A DNA stretch of 64,000 bases from Dehalococcoidia bacterium (GCA_050011565.1 JBEKIW010000001.1:320001-384000), one strand, 5' to 3'. Positions 1,247 to 14,892 are shown, numbered from the stretch's first letter. Notes: generated by a model from the sequence alone, not told the origin. Made by a program: numbers and translations.

Positions 1247-2710
1247 TTAAATAAACGGGACAAGCTCTTTCTGTCGAGTCCAGATTGGTGCCCTGGCGAT
1301 CACAGTTGTACCTTTGCCGGGCTCCGATTTTATCTGTAAAGTACCTCCGATAAGACGTGCCCGTTCTTCCATACCCAGGACTCCCAGCTTTCCTTCTTTC
1401 GCCAGGTCACCGGTCAATCTGGATGTCGAGAAGCCCTTGCCGTTATCCGTGATAGACATCTTCAAATTGTTTGAAGTAAGTTGTACTGTAATATTGACCG
1501 CTGACGCCTGAGCATGTTTTCGTATATTATTCAGTGTCTCCTGAGCAATTCGGAACATGGCTAACTCCACTTCTGAGGGAAGCGGAGGTAATTTATCCGA
1601 TTTTACCGAAGTTTTAATCCTCAATTCTTTGCCCAGTTCCTCAGTCAACCAGTTTAATGCGGCGACGAGTCCCATCTGGTCTAAAATGCTCGGCCTCAGG
1701 TCACGTGCATATCGCTGCAGACTTTTATAAGCATCATTGGCTATGTTCTCGATATGCTCGAGCTCTATAATCGAAGCTTTAGGTATCTTGGAATCATTTT
1801 TGGAGATAAGGATGTCCAGTTGTCGTGACAATAAAAGTATGGACTGCGCGATATCATCGTGGAGTTCCCGGGCAATTCGTTTCCGCTCCTCCTCCTGCGC
1901 CATGAGAGTTTTATGAATTTGAAGGCGAAGATTATCTCTCAGCCTTCTTTCTACAGTAACATCGCGAGCTATATTCTGAAAGCCGATAGGCTTGCCATCA
2001 GCGCGAATAAGGCGGGTAAACAATTCTACAATGGCGTCTGTGCCGTCTTTCTTAATTAATCGCTGGTCGTAGCGTTGGTCAATAGCTTGGCCCTTCATAA
2101 GCTTGGTTCTAATTTCTCTGGCTATCACCAGTGCATCACGGGACATGAATTCAGCAACATTTTTACCTATTAACTCATCCGGCGAGTAGCCACTGACCTT
2201 CTCACAGGCTCTATTGGCTATCACTATCTTGCCGTGCATATCATGAACCCAAATCGCATCACTGGCATTTGTAAAAAGCTCTTCGTAGCTCTCTTGAGAT
2301 GTTCTCAAGGCTACTCTAATTCCACGTAGTTTTTGTCTTTGTTGATGCCATCCCCGGCGCATTTGAATTAAGGTAATGCCCAGGCCGCCAATAGTAAGCG
2401 CAGCGATGCTCTCGATAGTGGAGTCTATAGGGGTAGATGATATGAATATTGCACGTGGAAGCATAACAAGGCCGGAAGCCAACAATGTACCGATGCCGAA
2501 CCTTAGTCCCAGCGACCAGCCGGCATAAACTATGAGCAAAATATAAATAAATCGCTCAACAGCGTATCTTGATAAACCGAGAAACGAGGCAATAGACACC
2601 TGGCCTATTATCGGGATGCTAGCCAGGAGTTCGTGGTAATGGGATAGAGTAAGAAGTAAGAAGATTAGGGTTAAGAAGCAGATGTGGAAAATTCGCCATC
2701 TATTTGACAC
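1247..2710 (-). CDS. Membrane-bound PAS sensor histidine kinase (NarX/HisKA_3 type)
   Basis: Hydrophobic N-terminus, PAS domain, EERKRIARELHD H-box, DNGKGF G-box. Confidence 0.92.
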   Translation of the reverse strand: MSNRWRIFHICFLTLIFLLLTLSHYHELLASIPIIGQVSIASFLGLSRYAVERFIYILLIVYAGWSLGLRFGIGTLLASGLVMLPRAIFISSTPIDSTIESIAALTIGGLGITLIQMRRGWHQQRQKLRGIRVALRTSQESYEELFTNASDAIWVHDMHGKIVIANRACEKVSGYSPDELIGKNVAEFMSRDALVIAREIRTKLMKGQAIDQRYDQRLIKKDGTDAIVELFTRLIRADGKPIGFQNIARDVTVERRLRDNLRLQIHKTLMAQEEERKRIARELHDDIAQSILLLSRQLDILISKNDSKIPKASIIELEHIENIANDAYKSLQRYARDLRPSILDQMGLVAALNWLTEELGKELRIKTSVKSDKLPPLPSEVELAMFRIAQETLNNIRKHAQASAVNITVQLTSNNLKMSITDNGKGFSTSRLTGDLAKEGKLGVLGMEERARLIGGTLQIKSEPGKGTTVIARAPIWTRQKELVPFI

Positions 2711-2780: not shown

Positions 2781-3467
2781 TCATTCCGAAGATTCACCTT
2801 GCTTAATATCTTCTAAAGTAATTAGTCCCGTTCTGAGGCCTTCAACTAGAGCTTCACTTCGCGAAGCAACAGTCATCTTGGTGAATATGTTCGACATGTG
2901 GGCCTTGACGGTTCGTAAGCTAAGATATAGTTTATCGGCTATCTCTTTGTTGCTCATTCCGGTGGCCAGTAGTTTCAGCATTTCCATCTCGCGGTCACTT
3001 AGAATGTCTCTTATCTTTCGGTCTACGGTTCCCGCCGGTTTAATCATGGCTTGTTTTAGCAACTTTTCAATTATCTTGGGGTGAAGCACCGACTCACCGG
3101 CTCTTATAGCCCGCACAGCTTCCACTAAATCCTGTCCCCGCGCGCTTTTCATCAGGTAACCGGCTGCTCCTGCCTCCAGTAATCCAAGCACGTAGTTATC
3201 GTCATCATAGGCGGTGAGAATCAGTATGGCGGTATTGGGGGCAATTTTCTTAATTTGTCGGCTGGCTTCAAGACCGTCGAACTTAGGCATCATAATATCC
3301 ATAACCAGTATATCTGGCTTCAACTGGGAAGTCAGATTGACGGCTTCCTCGCCATTATTTGCCTGGCCAACTATCTCCATATCTTTCTCATTAGAAAATA
3401 CCTGGCTCAATGCTTCCCGCAACAATGGATGGTCATCGGCAAGCAAAATTCTTGTTTTCGCCTTCAC
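2781..3467 (-). CDS. NarL/LuxR-family response regulator
   Basis: LADDH receiver, MDIMMP phospho-Asp, LSDRE..GMSNKEIA..TVKAHMSN HTH. Confidence 0.95.
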   Translation of the reverse strand: MKAKTRILLADDHPLLREALSQVFSNEKDMEIVGQANNGEEAVNLTSQLKPDILVMDIMMPKFDGLEASRQIKKIAPNTAILILTAYDDDNYVLGLLEAGAAGYLMKSARGQDLVEAVRAIRAGESVLHPKIIEKLLKQAMIKPAGTVDRKIRDILSDREMEMLKLLATGMSNKEIADKLYLSLRTVKAHMSNIFTKMTVASRSEALVEGLRTGLITLEDIKQGESSE

Positions 3468-3566
3468 TCTATCACCCCCTTAGCAGTTCAATACTAATTA
3501 TAAGGTATATCAGCCTGAAGGCACAATAATACTATGGTCATACATGTTCGGTGGTATTACGTAACA

Positions 3567-3632
3567 TAGGCCAAAGTACCATCGAAACTAGAGCTAAAGA
3601 CCGATGAGAGCCAATCTGCTAGCTGCTACAGT
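3567..3632 (+). promoter_or_regulatory. Conserved promoter A: upstream conserved block plus extended -10 (TGcTACAGT)
   Basis: 3571-3610 matches 7859-7898 at 32/40 positions without gaps; extended -10 at the same offset in both. Confidence 0.75.
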
Positions 3633-3672
3633 ATAGTTGTCAGAAAAATCTGGTTAATAATGAGCAGCGGGA

Positions 3673-3999
3673 ATGTCAGATAAGCTTGGTGAGAAGGCCG
3701 GAGATACTAGCGAAATGCTTAATAGATTAGTCAGTGCACCGACCGTTGTTCCAAATAATGGTTTAGCTGGTAAGTGGGCAATACTAGCTGTGCTGGCTAG
3801 GGCGGCTGATGAACCTGAGTTCATGTCACGTTTAGCCGAGAACCCACACGAGGCTCTTAAAGAGTATTACACCTTAACTCAAGAGCAGAAAATGGCCCTG
3901 GCTAGCGGCGATATACAGAAGATTGAGAGTTGGTTAGGTAAGTTGGATAAGCGATTGGCTAGCTGGCTTTGGTGCCGTCTTGGTCAGGAGAAGTGGTAA
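3673..3999 (+). CDS. Small QEKW-terminal protein, copy 1 (NHLP/Os1348-like helical domain)
   Basis: LARAADEPEFMSRLAENPHEALKEY..LT..E..ALASGD..RLGQEKW; paralogue of 7959-8285 and of the FNT C-terminal domain. Confidence 0.85.
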   Translation: MSDKLGEKAGDTSEMLNRLVSAPTVVPNNGLAGKWAILAVLARAADEPEFMSRLAENPHEALKEYYTLTQEQKMALASGDIQKIESWLGKLDKRLASWLWCRLGQEKW

Positions 4000-4011
4000 A
4001 GGAGAGAAATA

Positions 4012-4161
4012 ATGCATTGGCAATTTATAGCAGTCGCAGGTTTTATAGCAGCTGTTGCCTTATTTTCGGTAGTACTTTTTCTTACACAGAAGGGGCTGAG
4101 GCTCTGGTCTGATCGCGCCAGGACCAGGTCAAATACGACTGGCTGTGGCGGCTGAGGATAA
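4012..4161 (+). CDS. Small single-pass membrane protein, candidate selenoprotein ending GCGG-U-G (47 aa if UGA at 4153 is a stop)
   Basis: AAGGAG RBS 7 nt before ATG 4012; MHWQFIAVAGFIAAVALFSVVLFLTQKGLRLWSDRARTRSNTTGCGG-TGA-GGA-TAA; hairpin 4169-4186. Confidence 0.65.
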
Positions 4162-4237
4162 TTAAAGTGGCTGCAGTTGTGTGGCCGAGGAACCGTTGAC
4201 GTACCAGGGGCACAAAGAAATTAAAGGGGGTAAAAAA

Positions 4238-4693
4238 ATGGGCAAGTTCAATGTGTTAAGGAAATGCGACATTTTTCGAGCTTTGGATGATAAGCAGCTT
4301 CGTGAAGCGGAGAAAATGTGCGACTATGAAGAATTCGAGGCCGGAACAATTATTTGCAAGCAGGGAAACAAGGAAGAGAAGTTATACATAATCGAACACG
4401 GCGCAGTGGGGATTATTTTGGAAGTCGGGCCGCTAGCTCAGCGCCAGGTTCAAGCTGTAACCGACTATGAGGTGTTCGGCTGGTCGGCCATGCTGGACCC
4501 ATACGTTTGTACGGCTACAGTGAAAGCTTTAGAGAATACAAAGGTACTGGCTTTTGATGGGCAGGAGTTGTCCGGTTTGTGCGTAACCAGACCTGAAATA
4601 GGCTGCAGAATTTCAAGAGGAATCGCGCGTGTGGTAGCTGGCAGGCTACGTCAAGCCTATGCCCAGTTATTGGGTGTTACCGCACTGGTTTAA
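4238..4693 (+). CDS. Stand-alone cyclic nucleotide-binding domain protein (no HTH)
   Basis: ICKQG..LYIIEHGAV..EVFGWSAML..TATVKA cNMP-binding pattern; ATG 4238 after AAGGGGG preferred to GTG 4181. Confidence 0.85.
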   Translation: MGKFNVLRKCDIFRALDDKQLREAEKMCDYEEFEAGTIICKQGNKEEKLYIIEHGAVGIILEVGPLAQRQVQAVTDYEVFGWSAMLDPYVCTATVKALENTKVLAFDGQELSGLCVTRPEIGCRISRGIARVVAGRLRQAYAQLLGVTALV

Positions 4694-4720
4694 TTTCTAA
4701 TTCTGGAAAGGAGTTTAATC

Positions 4721-6688
4721 ATGGCAGATGTAAAAACAATCACTTCAATGATGGGGGAAAAGAGGGTATTCAATCCTCCAAAGGAATTCAGTGAACGGGC
4801 GTACATACGGAATCTGGTCGAGTATAAAGATGTCTATCAGTGGTCTATTAATGACCCTGAGGGCTTCTGGGGCGAGATGGCAGGCCAGCTGGATTGGTAT
4901 CGGAAATGGGATAAAGTGTTTGTCGAGGATTTCAAGGAGGGCAAGCATGAATGGTTTGTGGGGGGTAAGCTCAATGTCAGTCAAAATTGCCTCGACAGGC
5001 ATGTTAAGACGTGGAGAAAGAACAAAGCGGCTTTGATCTGGGAGGGCGACATCGGTGATAGCAAGGTGCTCACCTATCAACAGCTATATCGAGAGGTCTG
5101 CAAGTTTGCCAATGTGCTTAAGAAACATGGTGTCAAAAAAGGAGATAGGGTATCTATATATTTACCCATGATTGTGGAGCTGCCGATTGCCATGCTGGCT
5201 TGTGCCAGGATTGGTGCTATTCATAGCGTTGTTTTCGGCGGTTTCAGTGCTGATGCATTGAAAGATAGGATGCTGGACTGCCGATCTTCAGTACTCATTT
5301 GTGTCGATGGCTACTACCGTGGTGGCAAGATCATACGGAGTAAGGACAATGCAGACGCAGCCCTTGCAGCCTGCCCTGACGTGAAGGACGTCATAGTGGT
5401 CAAGAGGGCTAATATTGAAGTTGCCATGGAGAAGGGGCGTGATTATTGGTGGGACGATGAAATGGCATCTGATAGCGCTAAAACAGAGTGTAAGCCTGAA
5501 GTTATGGATGCTGAAGACCCACTGTTCATTTTGTATACCAGTGGGAGCACTGGCAAACCCAAGGGGGTTCTGCACACTCAAGCAGGTTACCTTCTTTACT
5601 GCTATCAGACATTTAAGTGGATCTTTGACATGAAAGAAGAAGATACTTTCTGGTGCACAGCCGACATTGGCTGGGTGACGGGGCACTCCTATATCGTCTA
5701 TGGCCCCTTGTCTTACGGAGCGACCACACTCATGTTTGAAGGGGTGCCAAACTATCCCCATCCTGATAGGTTCTGGGATATTGTTGAAAAATATCAGGTC
5801 AGCATTTTCTACACGGCGCCTACTGCACTCCGATCCATAATGAGAGAAGGAGACGAATGGCCTAATAAGCATAATTTGAGATCCCTGCGTCTCCTGGGCA
5901 CGGTAGGTGAACCGATAAATCCTGAGGCCTGGATTTGGTACTACAACGTAATAGGTAAAAATATGTGCCCTATTGTGGATACCTGGTGGCAAACAGAGAC
6001 GGGAGGAGTATTAATCACACCTTTACCCGGTGCTACTCCACTTAAACCGGGCTCAGCGACATTGCCGTTTCCTGGAGTCGAGGCTGCGGTGCTCAGAGAG
6101 GATGGTTCCGTTGCTGATGTGAACGAAGGCGGCTACTTGGTTATCAAAAAGCCCTGGCCGGGGCTGATGCGCCGGGTCTATGGCGACCCAGAGAGATTCA
6201 AGAACACTTACTTTGTTCGATTCCCAGGCGTTTATAATACGGGAGATGGCGCCAGAGTAGACGAGGACGGATTCTTCTGGTTAATGGGTCGTATTGACGA
6301 TGTTATCAATGTGTCAGGGCACCGTATAGGTACTGCCGAGGTGGAAAGTGCTCTGGTATCTCATGATAATGTCGCGGAAGCTGCTGTTGTTGGCATGCCC
6401 CATGAGATAAAAGGGCAAGGCATATACGCCTTCGTTACGTTAAAAGCCGGCGTGGGAAAGTCTGACGAGCTCAAGAAAGCGCTGGTATCCCATGTCCGCA
6501 AGGAGATTGGTCCAATAGCCACACCGGATAAGATTCAGTTTGCTGATGGTTTGCCAAAGACGAGAAGTGGCAAGATTATGAGAAGAATATTGACCAAGAT
6601 TGCTGCCGGCGATGTGGAGCAATTGGGTGACACTACTACACTGGCTGACCCCTCTGTGGTTGAAGTGCTGGTCAAGGAGAGATGCTAA
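4721..6688 (+). CDS. acs: Acetyl-CoA synthetase (AMP-forming)
   Basis: [44 protein letters not shown]. Confidence 0.97.
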
Positions 6689-6760
6689 GTTTATTGCAGT
6701 TGTGTTAGCTTTCTCCGGCATCAACCAATGTAAGATTATGGTGACATAGGAGGAAATTTT

Positions 6761-7336
6761 ATGGCAAAGGTGATTACTCAAAACGAGGTTCAATGGGCTA
6801 ATCCGGGCGCCTTAGGCTTAGCCGGATTTGGCCTGAATACGATTCTATTGCAGATTCACAATCTGGGTTTGATCACAAGTACTTTACCACTGGTATACGG
6901 ATTTTTCTGGGGTGGTGTAGCCCAGATTATTGCCGGCATCATAGATGCTCGGCGTGGCGATACCTTTGGTCTCACCGCCTTCACTTCCTACGGCTTGTTC
7001 TGGATAGGATTGAGCTTTTACTTTCTACTGCAGTGGACAGGCGTAGTCGAAATGGAGCGCTCTGGACTGGCCTGGTTATTTGTATGCTGGGGCATATTCA
7101 CCGGCTATATGACCATAGGCACGCTGAAGATGTCGGTGATGCACATCTTTGTGTTCGCGAGCTTGACTGTACTGTTCTTCTTGCTTGCCGCCGTATTTTT
7201 TGACCTCATACCGGCAGCGGTAGCCGGAGTGGAAGGACTGTGCTGTGGCGCTGCTGCAGCCTACGGTTCGGCAGCCGTGGTGCTGAACGATAAGTTCGGC
7301 AGGTGGGTGTTCCCCATCGGCCTGATTTCAAAATAG
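6761..7336 (+). CDS. satP: Acetate uptake transporter (GPR1/FUN34/YaaH family)
   Basis: ANPGALGLAGF signature, FGLTAFTSYGLFW, hydrophobic helices, directly after acs. Confidence 0.9.
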   Translation: MAKVITQNEVQWANPGALGLAGFGLNTILLQIHNLGLITSTLPLVYGFFWGGVAQIIAGIIDARRGDTFGLTAFTSYGLFWIGLSFYFLLQWTGVVEMERSGLAWLFVCWGIFTGYMTIGTLKMSVMHIFVFASLTVLFFLLAAVFFDLIPAAVAGVEGLCCGAAAAYGSAAVVLNDKFGRWVFPIGLISK

Positions 7337-7498
7337 AATAGTTAAAAACTGATATCTGTCGTTAGAACCAGGCTTAGGTATATTGGAAATAAGGAGGTTG
7401 GTTGTTACAAAGAACATTAGTTTTGAGCTAGGTCACTAGAATTAAGTGATAAACTCGGTGGCATTAATTTACTACAACTAGAAGGTGTGATGCCTTAA

Positions 7499-7645
7499 TA
7501 GAGGAGGGTACCGAGTGGGCGGTGGCAATCACTTTTGTGGCAGGTGCCCCAAACATTGACTTTAATCTGCCCAAACTCCTAGCTTTACTGAACTGCCCCC
7601 AAAAATTTGCCCCCAAATTTTGCCACCGCCCGCCCCCTTTTTACC
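7499..7645 (-). ncRNA. Candidate structured small RNA with four UUUGGG(GG)CA repeats inside a GC-rich closing stem
   Basis: 12-bp perfect inverted repeat 7517-7528/7620-7631; TGCCC(CC)AAA at 7545, 7568, 7594, 7608; sigma70-like promoter immediately upstream. Confidence 0.5.
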
Positions 7646-7648
7646 TCT

Positions 7649-7677
7649 AGTATAGCACTAATCTTTAATTACTTAAA
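7649..7677 (-). promoter_or_regulatory. Sigma70-like promoter TTTAAG-17 nt-TATACT with TGn extension
   Basis: Minus strand: tttaag taattaaagattagtgc tatact; no sizeable ORF follows. Confidence 0.6.
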
Positions 7678-7858
7678 TGGAAATAGTCAGACAAAACGGA
7701 ATAGGAATACGGAGGTTAATCCCCCGGTTTTCTTTTTTGTATCCGCAATTTAAGGTAACCGGGATAAATGTTAATGTCTGAGGGAACTAGTACCAATGGC
7801 CAAAATGAACTTGTTTTAGGGTTTTTAAACAAGATTAACGTAATACTTTTGGACGTAC

Positions 7859-7920
7859 CCAAAGCCCCATCGAAATTAGGGCGCGAGGCCGATGAGAGTT
7901 ACGTTACCAGTTGCTAAATT
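7859..7920 (+). promoter_or_regulatory. Conserved promoter B (paralogue of 3567-3632), extended -10 TGcTAAATT
   Basis: Ungapped alignment to 3571-3632; shared ccatcgaaa.tag.gc...ag.ccgatgagag. Confidence 0.75.
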
Positions 7921-7958
7921 AAAGATAGAAGTTCAAATAAATAAGGAGGTGACTAAAA

Positions 7959-8285
7959 ATGGCTGATCACGTTCGTAAAAAGCTCGAAGAAGGCACTGAA
8001 AACCTAGACAAACTCATCAGTGCACCCACAGTTGTCCCGAAGGAGGGCTTGGCCGGAAGGTGGGCGGTCCTATCTGTCCTGGCAAGAGCGGCTGATGAGC
8101 CCGATTTCATGAACCGCCTGGCAGAGGACCCTCATGAAGCTCTCAAGGAGTATTACACACTGACGCAGGAGGAGAAAGCAGCCTTAGCCAGTGGTGATAT
8201 CCAGAAGATTGAGAGCTGGGTTGGTAAGCTGGACAAGCGCCTTTCAACCTGGCTGTGGTATCGTCTATCTCAGGAGAAATGGTAA
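7959..8285 (+). CDS. Small QEKW-terminal protein, copy 2
   Basis: Strong AAGGAGGT RBS; collinear 108-aa paralogue of 3673-3999, ends RLSQEKW. Confidence 0.88.
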   Translation: MADHVRKKLEEGTENLDKLISAPTVVPKEGLAGRWAVLSVLARAADEPDFMNRLAEDPHEALKEYYTLTQEEKAALASGDIQKIESWVGKLDKRLSTWLWYRLSQEKW

Positions 8286-8294
8286 GGAGTAACC

Positions 8295-9545
8295 ATGGCA
8301 GATTTAAAATTAGGGGGCAAAGAAATACAAAAAATGGAAACTGAAAGGCATCCATCGGTTGAGGTATCTCGCTTACAAACCGCTCTGGAGGAGCTCAAAA
8401 ACTGTGCCACCACTGATTGTAGACCGCCGGCAGAGATGGCGCTGAAAATGGAAGCAGTAGGCGTAAGCAAGGCAAATGGAAATATCTGGACTATCTCACT
8501 TTTGGGAATTCTGGCGGGTTTCTTCATTGGACTGGGGGCTATGTTTGCCACCTTAGTTACCACAGATATCCAGATAGGTTTCGGATTGACCAAACTGGTT
8601 GGGGGCATTGTATTCAGCCTAGGACTGATCCTTGTCGTGGTGGCTGGAGCTGAGCTATTCACCGGCAATGCTCTTATGGTGGGCAGCCGGGCCAGCGGTA
8701 AGATTAGGTTATCACAGTTGTTTAAGAACTGGGGTATTGTCTATTTCACCAATCTTATAGGGTCGCTGTTATTAGTACTCGTAGTTTTTTATAGCCAGTT
8801 CTGGGCGCTAGATGGCTTCAAAGTAGGCGTAAACGCATTATCAATTGCCAACGCCAAAGTAAATCTGGCTTTCTGGCCGGCTTTTGCCCGCGGAATTTTG
8901 TGCAATACACTTGTCTGTCTGGCGGTCTGGCTCTGCTTTAGCGCTCGTTCCACTGTCGATAAAATATTCGCCATCCTGTTCCCTATAACCGCGTTTGTAG
9001 CTTGTGGCTTCGAGCACAGTATAGCTAACATGTACTTCATTCCAATGGGTATAGCTATGGCAGGGCAGGCCAAAGTCCTTGAAGTAGCTGGCCTTACGGC
9101 AAGCCAGGTGACTAATCTCAGTCTTAATGGCTTCATTGGTAATCTGATTCCGGTTACGCTGGGCAACATCGTTGGCGGCACGTTTGTAGGCAGCATTTAC
9201 TGGCTTATATACCTGCGTAAGGATCGTGCTGCTGAAGCAGCGGCTGCCAGGCCCTGGTTGTCAGGCGTGTTTTCTACCTCGCGATTACAAACTGCACCGG
9301 TTGGCTATCCAGACATGGAAACCAAGACTCTTATATCGGTGTTGGCCAGGGCCAGAGATGACTCCAGGTTTATGGCTAGACTTGCTGAGAATCCGAACCG
9401 GGCTCTAAAAGCTTACAGTCTGACACCGGAAGCAAAAGCCGCCTTAGAGAGTGGAGATGTCCGCTGGCTGGAATCCAGAGTGGGTACCCTGGATGAACCG
9501 CTGCGTACCTGGCTCACTTCCAGACTATCCCAAGAAAAATGGTGA
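8295..9545 (+). CDS. Formate/nitrite transporter (FNT, FocA/FdhC-like) with fused C-terminal QEKW domain
   Basis: GAELFTGN, GILCNTLVCLAVW, GFEHSIANM, LGNIVGG; C-terminal ~70 aa LARARDDSRF..RLSQEKW. Confidence 0.92.
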   Translation: MADLKLGGKEIQKMETERHPSVEVSRLQTALEELKNCATTDCRPPAEMALKMEAVGVSKANGNIWTISLLGILAGFFIGLGAMFATLVTTDIQIGFGLTKLVGGIVFSLGLILVVVAGAELFTGNALMVGSRASGKIRLSQLFKNWGIVYFTNLIGSLLLVLVVFYSQFWALDGFKVGVNALSIANAKVNLAFWPAFARGILCNTLVCLAVWLCFSARSTVDKIFAILFPITAFVACGFEHSIANMYFIPMGIAMAGQAKVLEVAGLTASQVTNLSLNGFIGNLIPVTLGNIVGGTFVGSIYWLIYLRKDRAAEAAAARPWLSGVFSTSRLQTAPVGYPDMETKTLISVLARARDDSRFMARLAENPNRALKAYSLTPEAKAALESGDVRWLESRVGTLDEPLRTWLTSRLSQEKW

Positions 9546-9562
9546 TAATTCCCCTCTTTTAG

Positions 9563-9598
9563 AAAGGGTGGCAGCTGAAAAGCCGTCACCCTTTTTTT
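9563..9598. terminator. Probable bidirectional intrinsic terminator between convergent FNT and hydrogenase protease genes
   Basis: aaagggtggcagct-gaaa-agccgtcacccttttttt imperfect hairpin with T-tract. Confidence 0.6.
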
Positions 9599-10056
9599 AA
9601 TTCCTTGAGGACCATTTCAACGCAGGTGGGAATTGCTTTTCGAACCTCAGGCGTACATTCCTCGTTGAAGGTGTGCACGTCTGACGCTTCGATGGCGAAG
9701 ATAATAATTTGTTGGGGCAGGGAAAGGCCCAATTTTTTACCAAACTCGAGGGCGGTAGTGAAGTCAATATCGTGTGGAGAGATCGTATGTCGGGCGGCAT
9801 CAAAAGCCTGGGTGTTGAGCCGGTAAATATGGCCTGCTTTTCCACCTACGGTTTGAATGGCGTCGATGATGATGGCTCTGTCATAACCAACTAGCAGGTC
9901 CAGCAGGGCAAGACCGGCTATACCGGTCTCCATAATCGTTACTTCTGGTTGGTTGACTCTATCTTTAAGTTCGGCTGTAACCCTGAGCCCCACTCCGTCA
10001 TCGCAGAGCAGCGGGTTACCCATTCCCAGTATCAGAGTCTTCGTCTTCCCATCCAC
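9586..10056 (-). CDS. Hydrogenase maturation protease
   Basis: LGMGNPLLCDDGVG, IIIDAI, SPHD motifs; follows the NiFe large subunit. Confidence 0.93.
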   Translation of the reverse strand: MDGKTKTLILGMGNPLLCDDGVGLRVTAELKDRVNQPEVTIMETGIAGLALLDLLVGYDRAIIIDAIQTVGGKAGHIYRLNTQAFDAARHTISPHDIDFTTALEFGKKLGLSLPQQIIIFAIEASDVHTFNEECTPEVRKAIPTCVEMVLKELKKG

Positions 10057-10096
10057 TTAAATTACAAGGCCATTCAAGCCGGCCGTGTTACGGTAG

Positions 10097-11557
10097 CTAG
10101 CGGTTAAGCCTTTCTACCACTTCCCCTTGGCTATTATAGATGACTACCTCCATTGGTGCCTGACCGGGGAGGGTATGAGTAGCACAACCGAAGCACGGGT
10201 CATAAGGCCGCCAGGCCATCTCTATGCGGTTAAGCAGCCCTTCGGTTATCTTTTTGCCCGGTTTTATGAGAGCTTGAGCTGCTTTCTTAACGGACATGCT
10301 CATGGCAGCGACATTATTGACTGTAGCCACGATTAAGTTGGCTTTCTTGATAATACCATTCTCATCGGTAATGTAATGATGCGTAAGAGTGCCTCTGGGA
10401 GCCTCGACTATGCCGACACCTTCATCTGGCCTAGCTGTCGGGATAGTGCGGATATTAGGGCTGGTAATCTCGGGGTCTTTGCTGAGCTCCAGCAATCTTT
10501 CGGCAGCATAGAGTAGCTCAACGAGTCGAGCCCAATGAGTCGCCAGGGTCTGATGGACAGGCTTTCCGCCCAGTGTTGAGTAGAACCTCTCATATTCTGC
10601 CTGCGCCAGAGGAGTTGCCATGCCATCGGCAGCATTAAGCCGGGAAAGAGGAGTCGACCTGAAAACGCCACTGTCCTTGCCGTCAACAAAGCCTTTCCAG
10701 CCGACTTTCTTGAGGTAAGGCATCTTGACATAAGTCCAGGGTTCCACATGTTCGGCAACATTATCGAGATATTCTTTAGATGAATATTTAACAAATTCCT
10801 TGCCGTCGGGGTCAACCACTCTAACCTTGCCATCATAGAAATTCACTCTGTTTTTTTCGTCAACCAGTCCCATATAGTAAGTGTGGTGAGTATAGGCGTC
10901 ACTAAGGACCATATCCAGATATTCTTTGTTCTTAAGGACGATATCGTCAAAAACTTTCAGAGAAAGCTTGGCGAATTCCACTGACTCCTTGGCTATTTGC
11001 TCCACTTCTTTCCTCTCGTCTTCATTAAGACCTTTGCTGACGCCGCCGGGCAAACCGAAGACGGGATGTACCGCTCGCCCGCCAAGCATTTGGATAATGC
11101 GGTGATTTTGCATCCGGGTCTTAATTACGGCTCCGCCCAGTTCCAGTCCCACTTTGGCAATAACTCCCAGAATGTTGCGTTCGGCTACCGGGGCTTCGGG
11201 GCCCATAACAAAGTCGGGACCAGCCAGTATATAAAAATGCGTAGTATGGTCGGTGACAAAGAACGAGCTGTAAAAAAGTTCACGCAGTTTTTTAGCTGGG
11301 CTGGGTGGGTCGACATGGAACACGTCATCTAGGCATTTTGCAGCCGCCATATGGTGTGCTTCAGGACAGACGCCGCAGATTCTCTGGGTTATCTGGGGCA
11401 TGTCCTCGGCTAAACGCCCTTCAGCGAACTTCTCAAAGCCCCTTAGTTCTGGGATTTGAAAGTAGGTATTTTCCACCTCACCGGCGTCATTGAGAAATAT
11501 CTCTATCTTGCCGTGGCCTTCCAGTCTGGTAATAGGGTCTATGGTTATTTTTTTCAT
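10097..11557 (-). CDS. mvhA: [NiFe]-hydrogenase large subunit, F420-non-reducing (group 3c-like)
   Basis: TRLEGHG, RICGVCPEAH (L1), EAPRG, YDPCFGCATH (L2, Cys form), cleavable C-terminal tail. Confidence 0.93.
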   Translation of the reverse strand: MKKITIDPITRLEGHGKIEIFLNDAGEVENTYFQIPELRGFEKFAEGRLAEDMPQITQRICGVCPEAHHMAAAKCLDDVFHVDPPSPAKKLRELFYSSFFVTDHTTHFYILAGPDFVMGPEAPVAERNILGVIAKVGLELGGAVIKTRMQNHRIIQMLGGRAVHPVFGLPGGVSKGLNEDERKEVEQIAKESVEFAKLSLKVFDDIVLKNKEYLDMVLSDAYTHHTYYMGLVDEKNRVNFYDGKVRVVDPDGKEFVKYSSKEYLDNVAEHVEPWTYVKMPYLKKVGWKGFVDGKDSGVFRSTPLSRLNAADGMATPLAQAEYERFYSTLGGKPVHQTLATHWARLVELLYAAERLLELSKDPEITSPNIRTIPTARPDEGVGIVEAPRGTLTHHYITDENGIIKKANLIVATVNNVAAMSMSVKKAAQALIKPGKKITEGLLNRIEMAWRPYDPCFGCATHTLPGQAPMEVVIYNSQGEVVERLNR

Positions 11558-12513
11558 TTGATTCTTGCCCTCCTTAGTAACGAGTCAGCTAAGCTATATC
11601 GATAGAAAGTACCCACGGGGTCGCGTATGTCAGAAATGATTTTATCTATTTCAGCCGGGTCGTTGGAGTCAATCACTGAGGCTATCCCACTCAGGAAATG
11701 AGCTCCCTGGTCGATTACTCCCTCGACAGGTCCGTAGCAGCCGGTGCAAGGCATATTGGCTTGTGGACATGGTGCTTCGCAGCCACCACGGGTGGCGATG
11801 CCGGCGCACATTAAGCCTTGCTCCAGCAGGCATATTTCCGGCTCTGGAATCATCTCAAAAGTTCGGTAGAATTTCTTAACCTTTTTCACATCTCTCTTCC
11901 GAGGGCAATCATCACATACCGCTTTGGCATTGTGCGTAATCACGGTACCCTTGGGCGGCAATTTGCCTTCGATGAGAGCTTCTAAGGCCAGCCAGGTTGT
12001 CCTGGCTTCAGGGGGACAGCCCGGGATTATATAGTCTATATCTATTGTCTGGCCAAGTGTCTTGACTGTGTCATAGAACTCCGGTATGGTCAACTCACCC
12101 TCCGGAACCTTATATTTTGTCTGGGGTACTACCTTTTCCTTGTTCACTGTTGACGGTGTTTCGAAATAAACCCGGTCGAAAATCGTTTGCCGGTTAAAAA
12201 GATTAGCCAGACCCGGGATTCCACCTTCATAGGCGCAGGCTCCGTACGCTATCACCACTTTCGATTTTTCACGCAGCATCTTGGCCAGGTGTTCCTGCTC
12301 CGAGTTTCTAATTGCGCCGTTAAATAAGCAGACATCTATGCTCTTTGCCGGCATGGCTTCAACATCTTTATATTTGACATCGATAGCTACCGGCCAGAAA
12401 ACGATATCCGCCACCTCGGCTAACTTAAGGATTTTGTCGCCAATTTGGAGCTGAGCAATCTCGCAACCACCGCAGCTTGCCGCCCAGTAGAGTGCTAATT
12501 TCAGCTTAGCCAT
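11554..12513 (-). CDS. mvhG: [NiFe]-hydrogenase small subunit
   Basis: SCGGCE, GACA, PGCPP, CLLEQG..CAG..GGC..CP...PCTGCYG. Confidence 0.92.
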
Positions 12514-12934
12514 GTTTTGCCTCCTTGGAGTTCTTATTAAATGGCCCTAAGGCTCTAACCTTTGCTGTCATATCGTCAACTATTGATACGAAGCGGTCTC
12601 CTTCAGAAGCTGATACCCAATCCAGCCGTACTCGCTCTTCCTCAATACCTAGCTGCTCCAGCGTTTTCTTAATCAGGGGCATGCGCCGCATCGTCTTGTA
12701 GTTGCCCTCGACGTAGTGGCAATCACCGGGATGGCAGCCTAAAATCAAAACGCCGTCAGCGCCAAGTTCAAAGGCTTTGGCGACGAAGGTTGGTTCCACC
12801 CGGCCACTACACATGACTCTGATAATGCGAACATTGGGCGAGCATTTCATTCTGGCAGTACCGGCCAAATCAGCGCCCCGATAGGAACACCAGTTACAAC
12901 AGAAGCCGACAATCCTTGGTTCGAAGTTGTTCAT
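12506..12934 (-). CDS. mvhD: Hydrogenase/Hdr [2Fe-2S] subunit MvhD, Cys form
   Basis: [28 protein letters not shown]. Confidence 0.93.
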
Positions 12935-14892
12935 ACTAATACTCCCTCGATTTCTGCCATAATTTCTTCGGTGGTAAAGTGCTTATGTGTTATTGCTGCG
13001 CTAGGGCAAGCGGCGACACAGGTGCCGCAACCCTTACATAGAGCTTCGTTAATTCGAGATACCTCGTCTTTTTCAATAAAGTCAATAGCGTTGTATGGAC
13101 AGAGTAGATTGCAGATTCGGCAGCTGGAGCATTTCTCTTCATCGATGACTGCCACGGCTGCTTCTAGCTCAACTTTACCCTTGCTTATCAAGGCCAAGAC
13201 GCGAGTAGCCGCGGCTGAAGCCTGGGCCACGGTATCAGGTATGTCTTTAGGACTCTGACAGCAGCCAGCGATAAAGACGCCTTCGGTCATAGTTGCTACG
13301 GGGTCAAGCTTAGGATGTCTTTCTATGAAGAAACCATCGGCACCCTGGCTGATGCCGAATTTCTGAGCCACATTCTTGGCGTCAGCGCGGGCTTCCAGGG
13401 CTATACATAGAACGACCATATCAACCGGGATCCGGACAATAGTTCCGAGTAAGCTGTCCTCACCGACGACGATGAGCTTCCCTTTCTCTTCATCGTTTTG
13501 TGCCCTATCTGTGACTTCAGCCGGTTTGCCTCGTATAAAAGTAATGCCTTCTTTGGACAGTCTTTTGTAGAATTCCTCGTAGCCCTTGCCAAAGCAGCGC
13601 ATGTCTATGTACATCTGGTAGACGTCAGCCTTTGTTTTTTCCTTTATGAGATGTGAATATTTGAGAGCATACATGCAGCAGACTCGAGAGCAGTATTCAT
13701 GGTAATTTTCGTCTCGGCTGCCCACACAATGGATTATAGCTATGCTCTTCGGCTCGGAGCCATCTTTAAGGACAATTTTGCCGCCGGTTGGCCCTACGGA
13801 GTTACAGATTCTCTCAAATTCAAGGCCGGTGACAACATTGGGCAATCTGCCGTAACCGTATTTCATAATAGGTGTGGGGTCGAACGGGTCATAGCCAGTG
13901 GTCAAGATTATGTTGCCGACATCTATCTCGGCGATTTTATCTTGCTGCTCAAAATCGATGGCTTCCCTCTCGCAGTACTTTTCGCAAGCACGGCATTTTC
14001 CTTTGAGGAAATAGGCACAGCTCTCCTTGTCTATAACGGGAACATTAGGTACTGCTTGTGCGAAAGGTGTGTAAATAGCTTTTCGCTGGCTCAGGCCGAG
14101 GTCGAACTCGCTATCTGCTTTCCAGGGGCATTTTTCCTGGCAGATACCACAGCCATTGCATTTAGATTCGTCAATAAACCGGGCCTTCTTTCTAACCTTG
14201 ACTTTGAAGTTGCCGATGAAACCGGAAACCTCCTCGACTTCACTATAGGTCATTAATTCGATGTGAGGATGTGAACCTGCGGATGTCATCTTAGGTGTCA
14301 GGATGCAGGCAGAGCAGTCCAGGGTGGGGAAGGTCTTGTCGAATTGAATCATGTGTCCGCCGATGCTAGATTCTCTCTCAACGAGATAAACTTTGTGTCC
14401 GGCATCAGCGATTTCTAATGCCGCCTGGATGCCGGCGATACCGCCACCAACAACTAAGGTGCTCGGATTGACAGGAACCTCCCTTGTCTCCAAGGGTTGA
14501 TGATAATAAACACGTTTTACCGCAGCGCTTACCAGGGCTTTGGCTTTTTCTGTAGCTTCTCCGTGGTCTTCGGTGGTCCAGGAGCAGTGCTCTCTTATAT
14601 TGGCCATCTCAAAGAGGTAAGGATTCATGCCGGCTTCCAGGACAGCATGGCGGAAAGTCGGTTCATGCAGCAGCGGAGAGCAGGAAGCAACCACAACCCG
14701 GTTAAGTTTCAAATTCTTAATATCATCCTTTATCATGCTCTGTCCCGGGTCGGAGCACATGAACTTGTATTCACGGGCAACTGCTACCGCCGGAAGTCCC
14801 TTAACAAACTCAACTACTTGCTGAACATCGACAGTGCCGGCAATATTTGACCCGCAGTGACAGACATAAACACCTATCTTTGGCTTTGCCAT
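12931..14892 (-). CDS. hdrA: Heterodisulfide reductase subunit A (flavoprotein), Cys form
   Basis: [46 protein letters not shown], ferredoxin motifs. Confidence 0.96.

Follow-up and report, generated by a model that had tools for sequence, protein, structure and literature searches.

A helical domain of the LigA-like/Os1348 type, ending in Q-E-x-W, occurs as free proteins and as protein tails in formate/acetate operons of Dehalococcoidia

The DNA analysed here is a 64,000-nucleotide stretch from a Dehalococcoidia bacterium (GCA_050011565.1 JBEKIW010000001.1:320001-384000; hereafter the window), which between positions 3,673 and 9,545 carries three copies of a ~72-residue domain ending in the residues QEKW. 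Two copies are free-standing 108-residue proteins and the third is the C-terminal tail of a 416-residue membrane channel of the FNT family, all encoded on the plus strand (Table 1). Both free copies head their units, as an earlier reading made from the sequence alone (the sequence-only reading) had proposed. Free copy 1 precedes genes for a stand-alone cyclic-nucleotide-binding-domain (cNMP) protein, an acetyl-CoA synthetase (acs) and a SatP acetate channel, contents that the same reading had named correctly, and free copy 2 precedes the channel gene that bears the tail. Relatives of the domain are found as tails of formate dehydrogenase and as fusions to receiver domains. We suggest, tentatively, that free and tethered forms may pair with each other.

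Free copy 2 is 73% identical to free copy 1 and the FNT tail 51% (alignment over the last 95 residues of the FNT protein). The three-copy alignment has 45 invariant columns and every copy ends in QEKW, and the three-copy domain noticed in the sequence-only reading is thus real. Conservation spans the whole domain, not a leader part alone, and many of the conserved residues are polar (R, D, E, an S-G-D motif, E, D, R and Q-E-x-W). Against the NCBIfam model NF038399, 'Os1348 family NHLP clan protein', with a curated cut-off of 40 bits, free copy 2 scores 45.8 bits (E 4.8e-12), free copy 1 39.7 bits (E 3.8e-10) and the FNT tail 31.2 bits (E 1.7e-07). A six-frame search of the entire 2.0-Mb assembly, which is 99.2% complete, returned exactly three places, namely the two free copies and the tail. 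In this genome search free copy 2 scored 46 bits and free copy 1 40.2 bits, over the cut-off, and the FNT tail taken alone again fell short with 35.2 bits. A Pfam search on the copies gave matches to PF14407 only, all below threshold. The three copies are a distinct subfamily of the LigA-like/Os1348 helical domain, ending in Q-E-x-W.

Table 1. Features of the window (positions counted from its first nucleotide)
Feature	Position	Strand	Remarks
Sensor histidine kinase	1247-2710	-	Hydrophobic N-terminal region, PAS, HisKA_3, HATPase_c (Pfam)
NarL/LuxR-type response regulator	2781-3467	-	REC and GerE (Pfam); divergent from free copy 1
Conserved upstream element 1	3571-3632	+	Ends 41 nucleotides before the ATG of free copy 1
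Free copy 1, 'A' type, 108 residues	3673-3999	+	Heads the cNMP-acs-satP unit; Lys at -16, Trp-Cys at -9/-8
Small hydrophobic open reading frame, 47 residues	4012-4155	+	Between free copy 1 and the cNMP gene
Stand-alone cyclic-nucleotide-binding-domain protein	4181-4693	+	PF00027, 51.7 bits
Acetyl-CoA synthetase (acs)	4721-6688	+	PF16177, PF00501, PF13193
SatP/AceTr acetate channel, untailed	6761-7336	+	PF01184; NF038013, 165.9 bits (cut-off 50)
Conserved upstream element 2	7859-7920	+	Ends 39 nucleotides before the ATG of free copy 2
Free copy 2, 'A' type, 108 residues	7959-8285	+	Stop codon 9 nucleotides before the FNT start
FNT-family channel, 416 residues	8295-9545	+	PF01226 core at residues 47-304, ~40-residue linker, C-terminal tail
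Tethered copy, 'B' type	9330-9545 (with stop codon)	+	FNT residues ~346-416; Glu at -16, Thr-Ser at -9/-8, Trp at -26, Arg at -22
HycI protease, [NiFe] hydrogenase large and small subunits, MvhD-like (FlpD) and HdrA-like proteins	9586-14892	-	Pfam; converge on the FNT gene

The tail-bearing protein is assigned to the FNT family by PF01226 (248.2 bits against a cut-off of 34.6), and the model of the E. coli-type FocA, with 285 positions, aligns to its residues 40-311. About 105-110 extra residues follow the FNT core, of which the linker takes up the first part before the domain begins at about nucleotide 9330. The protein misses the cut-offs of the FocA equivalog models TIGR04060 and NF008069 (254.2 against 290.1 bits and 240.6 against 440 bits, respectively), and we infer formate as its substrate from the formate dehydrogenase context of the family, not from the FocA model. 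A search with the FNT tail gave 273 matching proteins of 228-728 residues, and the best 120, those listed, are all FNT proteins, mostly of 415-416 residues. Tailed channels also share a conserved N-terminal cytoplasmic region (residues 1-58 in the window protein, positions 8295-8470), in which two cysteines form part of a C-A-T-T-D-C-R-P-P motif.

A model of the domain core (window positions 8046-8282) was predicted with AlphaFold2 from 71 diverse family members. It is all-alpha, with six helices, at a pLDDT of 89.1 and a pTM of 0.77; a first model from 18 sequences (pLDDT 67.6), for which Foldseek gave no match at E <= 1e-3, is superseded by it. Structural comparison (VIA) placed the C-terminal domain of DesB first (3wku_A residues 314-386; Z 8.2, 73/79 residues, rmsd 2.9) and LigA next (1b4u_A; Z 8.1, 73/79 residues, rmsd 3.2), followed by SonA (Z 6.1, 52 residues), the borosin methyltransferase clasp domain (Z 5.2, 61 residues) and Os1348 (6lk7_A; Z 4.6, 55 residues, rmsd 3.0), with the best unrelated row at Z 4.3 over 62 residues. 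Foldseek with the 71-sequence model returned nothing at E <= 1e-3; the rows of DesB, LigA, SonA and Os1348 lead its results at E > 0.1, and the comparison with Os1348 gives a TM-score of 0.46-0.56 at an E value above 1. When the sequence profile was compared with solved structures, Os1348 (6lk7_A) came out best (E 1.9e-4), before SonA, borosin domains and nitrile hydratase alpha. In the ESM Atlas the nearest clusters consist of Chloroflexota proteins without names, of which one has the automatic name LigA subunit domain. Going by the predicted model, the domain belongs to the LigA-like superfamily as unified in ECOD (PMC12353581), a superfamily described there as having a three-helix core, a tight turn and C-terminal helices, and as comprising regulatory or recognition modules. 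The likeness to NHLP, Os1348 and LigA proteins that the sequence-only reading had seen is correct, but its limit to the first half of the domain is not, since the whole ~72-residue domain is LigA-like (73/79 residues). At the level of fold the analogy to GlnK drawn in the same reading fails, as the model is all-alpha, unlike a beta-alpha-beta PII protein. An all-helical fold counts against a PII protein, though not against a protein that could regulate a channel. A DNA-binding role of the domain is unlikely, as its core is net acidic by our own count of the sequence.

The family is large and its fusion partners are diverse. In a database search restricted to similar length, 1103 of 1115 candidates were relatives at E <= 1e-3; those listed (120) are 71-95% identical, mostly 107-109 residues long and, where named, from metagenome-assembled genomes (MAGs) of Chloroflexota/Dehalococcoidia. 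Among 85 longer database matches we found 82 FdhA proteins (formate dehydrogenase alpha), two NuoE-like proteins and one receiver-domain protein, and QEKW stands at the extreme C-terminus in each of the seven fusion proteins whose sequence was read. Searched exhaustively with a profile, 1.84 billion representative proteins yielded 356 matches at E <= 1e-3 and 172 at E <= 1e-10. At least 83 of the best 150 representatives end in [QR][ED]xW, the endings including QEKW (37), QEIW (20), QERW (12), REAW (5), QESW (4), QEAW (3) and QDKW (2). Pfam annotation of the long representatives identified five receiver-domain (REC) fusions, one of them with two receivers, two NuoE fusions in which the domain is N-terminal, an HTH_17/MerR protein with two tandem copies and a Fer4_22 iron-sulfur protein with two copies; four further long representatives have no fusion partner recognisable by Pfam. 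The domain is patchy in its distribution: at E <= 1e-6 we found a match in 12 of the 301 Chloroflexota genomes sampled, a strong one in about four, a tally that is too small for a co-occurrence test and includes one unpublished genome (G203, weak match), which enters no other result. Within this sample, the three genomes of the window's own family gave no match to the domain at E <= 1e-6.

Tailed FdhA enzymes are ~987 residues long. Many 'FdhA' entries of 594-607 residues appear to be C-terminal pieces, left by gene callers that stop at a selenocysteine TGA, and in one locus (L027) pieces of 376 and 607 residues are split by an in-frame TGA in the context HCARL-TGA-HSPTV. The window genome has an FdhA of its own ~16 kb past the window end (G000:C1:400416-403076, minus strand). 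This enzyme is untailed and has one in-frame TGA, which is probably a selenocysteine codon; over residues 10-914 it shares 55% identity with the tailed P0126.

We compared the window with 25 related loci, in which genes were called as longest open reading frames (greedily) and labelled by phmmer and Pfam. Three arrangements recur, in each of which a histidine kinase-response regulator pair is divergent from the free copy: free copy, cNMP, acs, in some cases satP, a further free copy and tailed FNT; free copy, NuoE, NuoF and tailed FdhA; and free copy and tailed FNT. Wherever a locus has FNT (17/17, window included), the gene immediately upstream is a free copy; the FNT tail is visible in 16 of these loci, the remaining one being cut by the locus end. 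Likewise, a free copy lies directly upstream of NuoE in all seven loci of the formate dehydrogenase (FDH) type. Spacing is tight, with gaps to the FNT gene of 9-18 nucleotides in 13 of 15 related loci and of 9 nucleotides in the window, and gaps to NuoE of 3-16 nucleotides in 7/7. A response regulator gene adjoins the free copy in 16 of the 26 loci, and kinase/regulator pairs flank the module in both Dehalococcoidia and Anaerolineae. None of the 12 satP genes in the loci examined has a tail. More remote members ending in QEIW occupy 33 further loci, mainly in Anaerolineae, with kinase-regulator pairs, Usp and FNT; at least one neighbour matches FNT, FdhA, NuoE/F, a kinase or a regulator in 30 of these, and their other neighbours include W/Mo-type ABC transporters, MoaA, CobW-type GTPases and CCG/Fer4_22 proteins.

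Receiver-fused copies were found in Spirochaetota, Planctomycetota and Desulfobacterota. Pfam annotation of the context of eight such loci gave FdhA in L037 and L050 and acs in L048 and L050; in L057 and L058 it gave only kinases, receivers, a sigma-54 regulator and a large flavin/Fe-S oxidoreductase, and L059 and L061 share the gene layout of these two by open reading frame size alone. Fusions of an N-terminal REC domain to an FNT channel (PF01226, 428-454 residues) are encoded in L037 (6651-7934), L040 (4668-5960) and L043 (8297-9658, minus strand), in MAGs labelled Spirochaetaceae, Planctomycetota and Desulfatiglandales, and each adjoins a gene for a receiver-fused copy (REC::Os1348) and Cache or GAF kinases. 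A full-text literature search gave nothing relevant on receiver-fused FNT channels. Among 155 neighbour proteins annotated with Pfam (74 + 44 + 37) there is no maturase, leader peptidase or dedicated exporter for peptides made on the ribosome and modified after translation (RiPPs), and YcaO, LanM-type, peptidase-exporter and peptide-modifying radical-SAM genes are likewise missing from the annotated neighbours. The radical-SAM proteins that do occur are MoaA (L122, L126) and one B12-binding radical-SAM protein ~4 kb off in L040. Homologues thus adjoin FNT, formate dehydrogenase and acs genes and not RiPP-modifying enzymes, a placement that would have spoken against the sequence-only reading.

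Five further genomes each contain exactly two copies, one free and one tail, at the same locus. The tail is carried by FdhA in four of these genomes and by FNT in one, and none has both proteins tailed. The four genomes with an FdhA tail lack a tailed FNT; two have an untailed FNT elsewhere and in the other two no FNT was found, the completeness of these genomes being unknown. Tails on FdhA where FNT is untailed or not found argue against tails that serve only to dock FDH on the channel. The free (A) and tethered (B) forms also differ in sequence. We compared the sequences that end in the motif (118/120 listed free proteins, 82/82 FdhA tails, 115/120 listed FNT tails and 3/3 NuoE/REC fusions, the other seven sequences being dropped), counting positions from the C-terminus. 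Position -16 is Lys in 117/118 free proteins and Glu in 67/82 FdhA tails and 111/115 FNT tails. At position -9 free proteins have Trp or Leu, FdhA tails Ile (76/82) and FNT tails Thr (106/115), and at position -8 the residues are Tyr, His, Cys or Phe, Ala (64/82) and Ser (115/115), respectively. Positions -26 and -22 are Lys and Trp in both free proteins and FdhA tails, and Trp (115/115) and Arg (114/115) in FNT tails. The three NuoE/REC fusions resemble the free type in these class residues. The window fits the classes, its free copies reading ...LDKRL...WLW[CY]RL and its tail ...LDEPL...WLTSRL. A quick tree separates a clade of FNT tails (support 91-95) from one of FdhA tails (94), the latter grouping with the free proteins of Dehalococcoidia, and assigns the two free copies of the window to different sub-clades.

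Both free-copy genes of the window are preceded by a conserved element with the same sub-motifs at the same spacing. It consists of CCAAAG, CCATCGAAA, a fixed spacing, CCGATGAGAG and then an extended -10-like TGCTAnAnT, which reads TGCTACAGT in element 1 and TGCTAAATT in element 2. Within the window both exact sub-motifs occur only upstream of these two genes, and related loci have versions of the element before their orthologous free-copy genes, those of the FDH-type loci being degenerate. Rfam gave no match at E <= 1 in 3300-9700, and the left half of the element varies among loci without a compensating change on the right; we therefore read the element as DNA and not as RNA. It is plausibly a promoter that includes a site at which the adjacent NarL-type regulator would act as activator. 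A scan for consensus sigma-70 promoters was uninformative, with 6 sites against 7.6 expected and none at the conserved elements.

These observations are consistent with a mechanism in which the domain would act as a protein-protein pairing module in formate/acetate operons under two-component control. The A form, a free 108-residue protein made from the first gene of the regulated unit and closely spaced with the next gene, would pair with the B form, which is the C-terminal tail of the last gene product, FNT here and FdhA in sister lineages. Through pairing, the channel or the dehydrogenase would acquire a small subunit, accessory or regulatory in role, the level of which would be set by the adjacent PAS kinase and NarL-type regulator through the common promoter element. 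The one-plus-one copy numbers, the strict gene order, the close spacing and the complementary class residues argue for pairing of A with B, as do the dimer precedent of Os1348 and the clamp precedents of LigA and the C-terminal domain of DesB. In addition, FdhA and FNT are unrelated folds, and a common small partner would therefore be simpler than a common docking surface. Family, fold, fusions, gene order, copy numbers and the A/B residue differences are established directly; that A binds B, and that this binding affects transport or catalysis, we infer. A complex prediction for FNT residues 335-416 with free copy 2 residues 20-108, run without controls, gave a score of 0.00, which speaks neither for nor against binding. 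The account that we favour, at what we judge to be slightly below an even chance, is pairing of the two forms into a module with an accessory or regulatory role in formate/acetate operons under two-component control.

Several observations weigh against A:B pairing. Free copy 1 heads the cNMP-acs-satP unit, in which there is no tailed protein, and the window genome accordingly has two A forms for one B form. An untailed FNT lies beside the free protein in eight loci of the QEIW type (L116, L118, L122, L124-L128), and REC-fused copies in other phyla have no tail-bearing neighbour. Pairing of A with B is therefore not the family's sole mode. In five loci the first position is taken by a short paralogue that lacks the whole second half, QEKW included. 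The class residues may be inherited, convergent or both, so that the A/B differences may partly reflect ancestry; in the tree the tail clades are joined by weak forks only (75), which show neither a single origin nor convergence. Finally, the loci were fetched with query-derived patterns from related MAGs, so their counts are not independent, and the open reading frame calls are crude. The short paralogue just mentioned (~60-75 residues; L007:1104-1331, L009:2385-2612 and the regulator-cNMP spacers of L010, L012 and L017) keeps the LigA-like first half (..NPxFLAYLTNRPYE..) and is without the S-G-D...QEKW half.

The sequence-only reading had suggested that the domain is an oligomerising cytoplasmic gating or partner module of SatP and FNT channels. 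What stands of this is that the copies are real and adjoin FNT. In its broadest form the domain would be a ligand of the FNT cytoplasmic face: free and REC-fused copies would gate the channel, the tails of FdhA and NuoE would dock the dehydrogenase on the channel in a formate metabolon, and the FNT tail would be a tethered ligand. FNT is indeed the most frequent neighbour, directly 3' of the free copy wherever Dehalococcoidia loci have it (17/17); the untailed FNTs of the eight QEIW-type loci would suit a free ligand, and the three loci in three phyla (L037, L040, L043) with REC::Os1348 beside REC::FNT suggest control of FNT by signalling. A role specific to channels is nonetheless hard to reconcile with the tail on soluble FdhA (82/85 longer matches) and the fusions to NuoE, receiver domains, an HTH protein and an Fe-S protein. 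FDH-type operons (L019-L024, L028) have a free copy and a tail with no FNT nearby, the four genomes with an FdhA tail and a free copy include none with a tailed FNT (0/4) and two, of unknown completeness, in which no FNT was found, and L057-L059 and L061 are without FNT or FDH within ~4.5 kb, in L059 and L061 by gene order only. The acs-satP unit has a free copy, yet satP is tailed in 0/12 cases. We regard a channel-directed ligand as unlikely.

An explanation centred on the regulators is in our view similarly improbable. The free protein would then be a feedback modulator of the adjacent kinase or regulator and the FNT and FdhA tails would titrate it, so that the regulon would sense the amount of channel or enzyme in the manner of a partner switch. 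A regulator gene adjoining the free copy in 16/26 loci, running in the same direction in the kinase-regulator-(Usp) loci of Anaerolineae, would fit such a connector, as would the repeated receiver-domain fusions (five representatives; loci in at least three phyla), the HTH fusion and the position of a free copy after each regulated promoter element. Adjacency is, however, equally expected if the free-copy gene is simply the first gene under the regulator, and free copy 2 lies ~4.5 kb from the regulator gene. Moreover, fusions to neighbouring genes can be neutral, and the contact with kinase or regulator is purely postulated.

Pairing and signalling could also be combined. A units, whether free, REC-fused or NuoE-fused, would dock like plugs on the B sockets of formate channel and FDH, and two-component signalling would control formate flux at the protein level besides transcription, with REC::FNT beside REC::Os1348 as a second solution, a phosphorylation-gated formate channel. 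We give this bolder extension of A:B pairing only a small chance of being right. A sensor of small molecules, which would bind formate, acetate/acetyl-CoA or a Mo/W cofactor intermediate and signal to its fusion partner, is less probable still. The many conserved polar residues, the fusions to both output-type (REC) and input-type (HTH) partners and the W/Mo-type ABC transporters and MoaA among the neighbours speak for it; against it, the domain is a six-helix unit of 72 residues in which no known ligand-binding motif was recognised, and its structural relatives all work by protein contacts. Least probable is a RiPP precursor or scaffold with an NHLP-type leader and the invariant C-terminal residues as a short modified or released core, for although the domain belongs to the NHLP clan, its founding member Os1348 has been proposed as a bacteriocin precursor (PMC7726476) and its extreme C-terminus is strikingly invariant, there is no Gly-Gly site and no Cys/Ser/Thr-rich core, the ...RLSQEKW end directly follows the last helix, the annotated neighbours include no maturase, leader peptidase or exporter, the whole domain and not a leader alone is conserved, and it sits on the C-terminus of ~987-residue enzymes and of a membrane channel.

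Downstream of the FNT gene lies a convergent cluster of an Mvh-type [NiFe] hydrogenase and HdrA. Open reading frames of ~486 and ~319 residues, as in this cluster, are also found 3' of the FNT gene in L006, L013 and L015, the Pfam annotation of these frames coming from the window only. The 47-residue open reading frame directly after free copy 1 has a single hydrophobic stretch and a good ribosome-binding site. Similar frames occur in L006 and L011, with a common C-terminal ...GC(R/G)G end; a Pfam search with the frame gave no match, and its membership in the system is uncertain. Among the weak NCBIfam matches of the cNMP protein is one to Pat, a mycobacterial acetyltransferase, in its cNMP domain (E 5.7e-05), and in 15 loci a stand-alone cNMP-domain gene comes before acs. 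L048 has a GNAT gene in the interval from REC::Os1348 to acs. The likeness to Pat and this GNAT gene are hints that Acs may be under post-translational control. The spacer between satP and free copy 2 (7337-7958) is unusually long (~620 nucleotides) and contains C-rich near-repeats (..tgcccccaaaaatttgcccccaaattttgccaccgcccgccccc..). A hairpin followed by a T-run at ~7711-7740 (-16.7 kcal/mol, z -1.9) is a weak candidate for a satP terminator.

In the anaerobic turnover of carbon and hydrogen, FNT channels and NAD-linked formate dehydrogenases have a central place, and the control of formate flux outside enterobacteria is largely unknown. A small and extremely conserved module that is found on a channel, a dehydrogenase, NuoE and receivers, together with a dedicated free partner from the same operon, gives experiments a concrete point of entry to the assembly of formate metabolism, or to its control after translation, in abundant uncultured Chloroflexota. 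It also matters for genome-mining pipelines that the label 'RiPP precursor clan' of this family covers members with another function. The sequence-only reading did not recognise a described system. The family name, one crystal structure and the fold superfamily are already known, the structure being that of the founding member (PMC7726476). The point of the sequence-only reading holds for the link to formate and acetate: a literature search, which for FocA extensions extended to titles only, found nothing that connects the family with FNT channels, formate dehydrogenase, acs or receiver domains.

The domain can be compared with several known systems. LigA-like domains of RiPP pathways (SonA with SonM, the OphMA clasp, NHLP/Nif11 leaders and PF14407 Frankia_peptide) belong to the same superfamily and bind a partner enzyme, but they precede a modified core; here there is no core and no modifying enzyme, and the domain is placed at the C-terminus. 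NHLP/Nif11 precursors, as Haft et al. are said to have set out in 2010, consist of a leader, a Gly-Gly-type cleavage site and a modifiable core peptide. FdsD is a small helical accessory protein of the FdsABG-type NAD-dependent formate dehydrogenase, and could be a functional analogue of the copies in FDH operons. None of the three copies gives a Pfam FdsD match, and we know of no FdsD on channels or receivers. In GlnK-AmtB and FocA-PflB a cytoplasmic partner regulates a channel, GlnK being a beta-alpha-beta PII trimer. As in GlnK-AmtB, a candidate cytoplasmic partner is encoded beside a channel gene here. Unlike in these two systems, the module is also present on soluble FdhA/NuoE and on receivers, and it is all-alpha where GlnK has its own, different fold.

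The closest relatives by family and by fold are Os1348 and the LigA/DesB proteins. The C-terminal domain of DesB presumably caps the neighbouring protomer. Os1348 of Pseudomonas sp. Os17 (PDB 6lk7) is in the same NCBIfam family and is reported to have six helices, the number in the predicted model of the domain; it is described as a stable homodimer, which is the precedent for pairing (PMC7726476). The same source presents this 85-residue protein as a putative bacteriocin precursor that affects antibiotic activity, whose gene shares its cluster with genes for a GNAT acetyltransferase, a peptidase-MA-like protein and efflux (PMC7726476). The window copies, in contrast, lie in formate/acetate operons, end in Q-E-x-W and form tails of enzymes and channels, and their structural match to Os1348 is moderate (Z 4.6, 55 residues). 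LigA and DesB are only 15-25% identical to the domain and their partners are extradiol dioxygenase catalytic domains, with no LigB-like gene found here. LigA has been described as a regulatory subunit of LigB (PMC12353581). In both cases the same fold exists as a free small subunit, as in LigA, and as a C-terminal fusion, as in DesB, just as the domain does in the operons described here.

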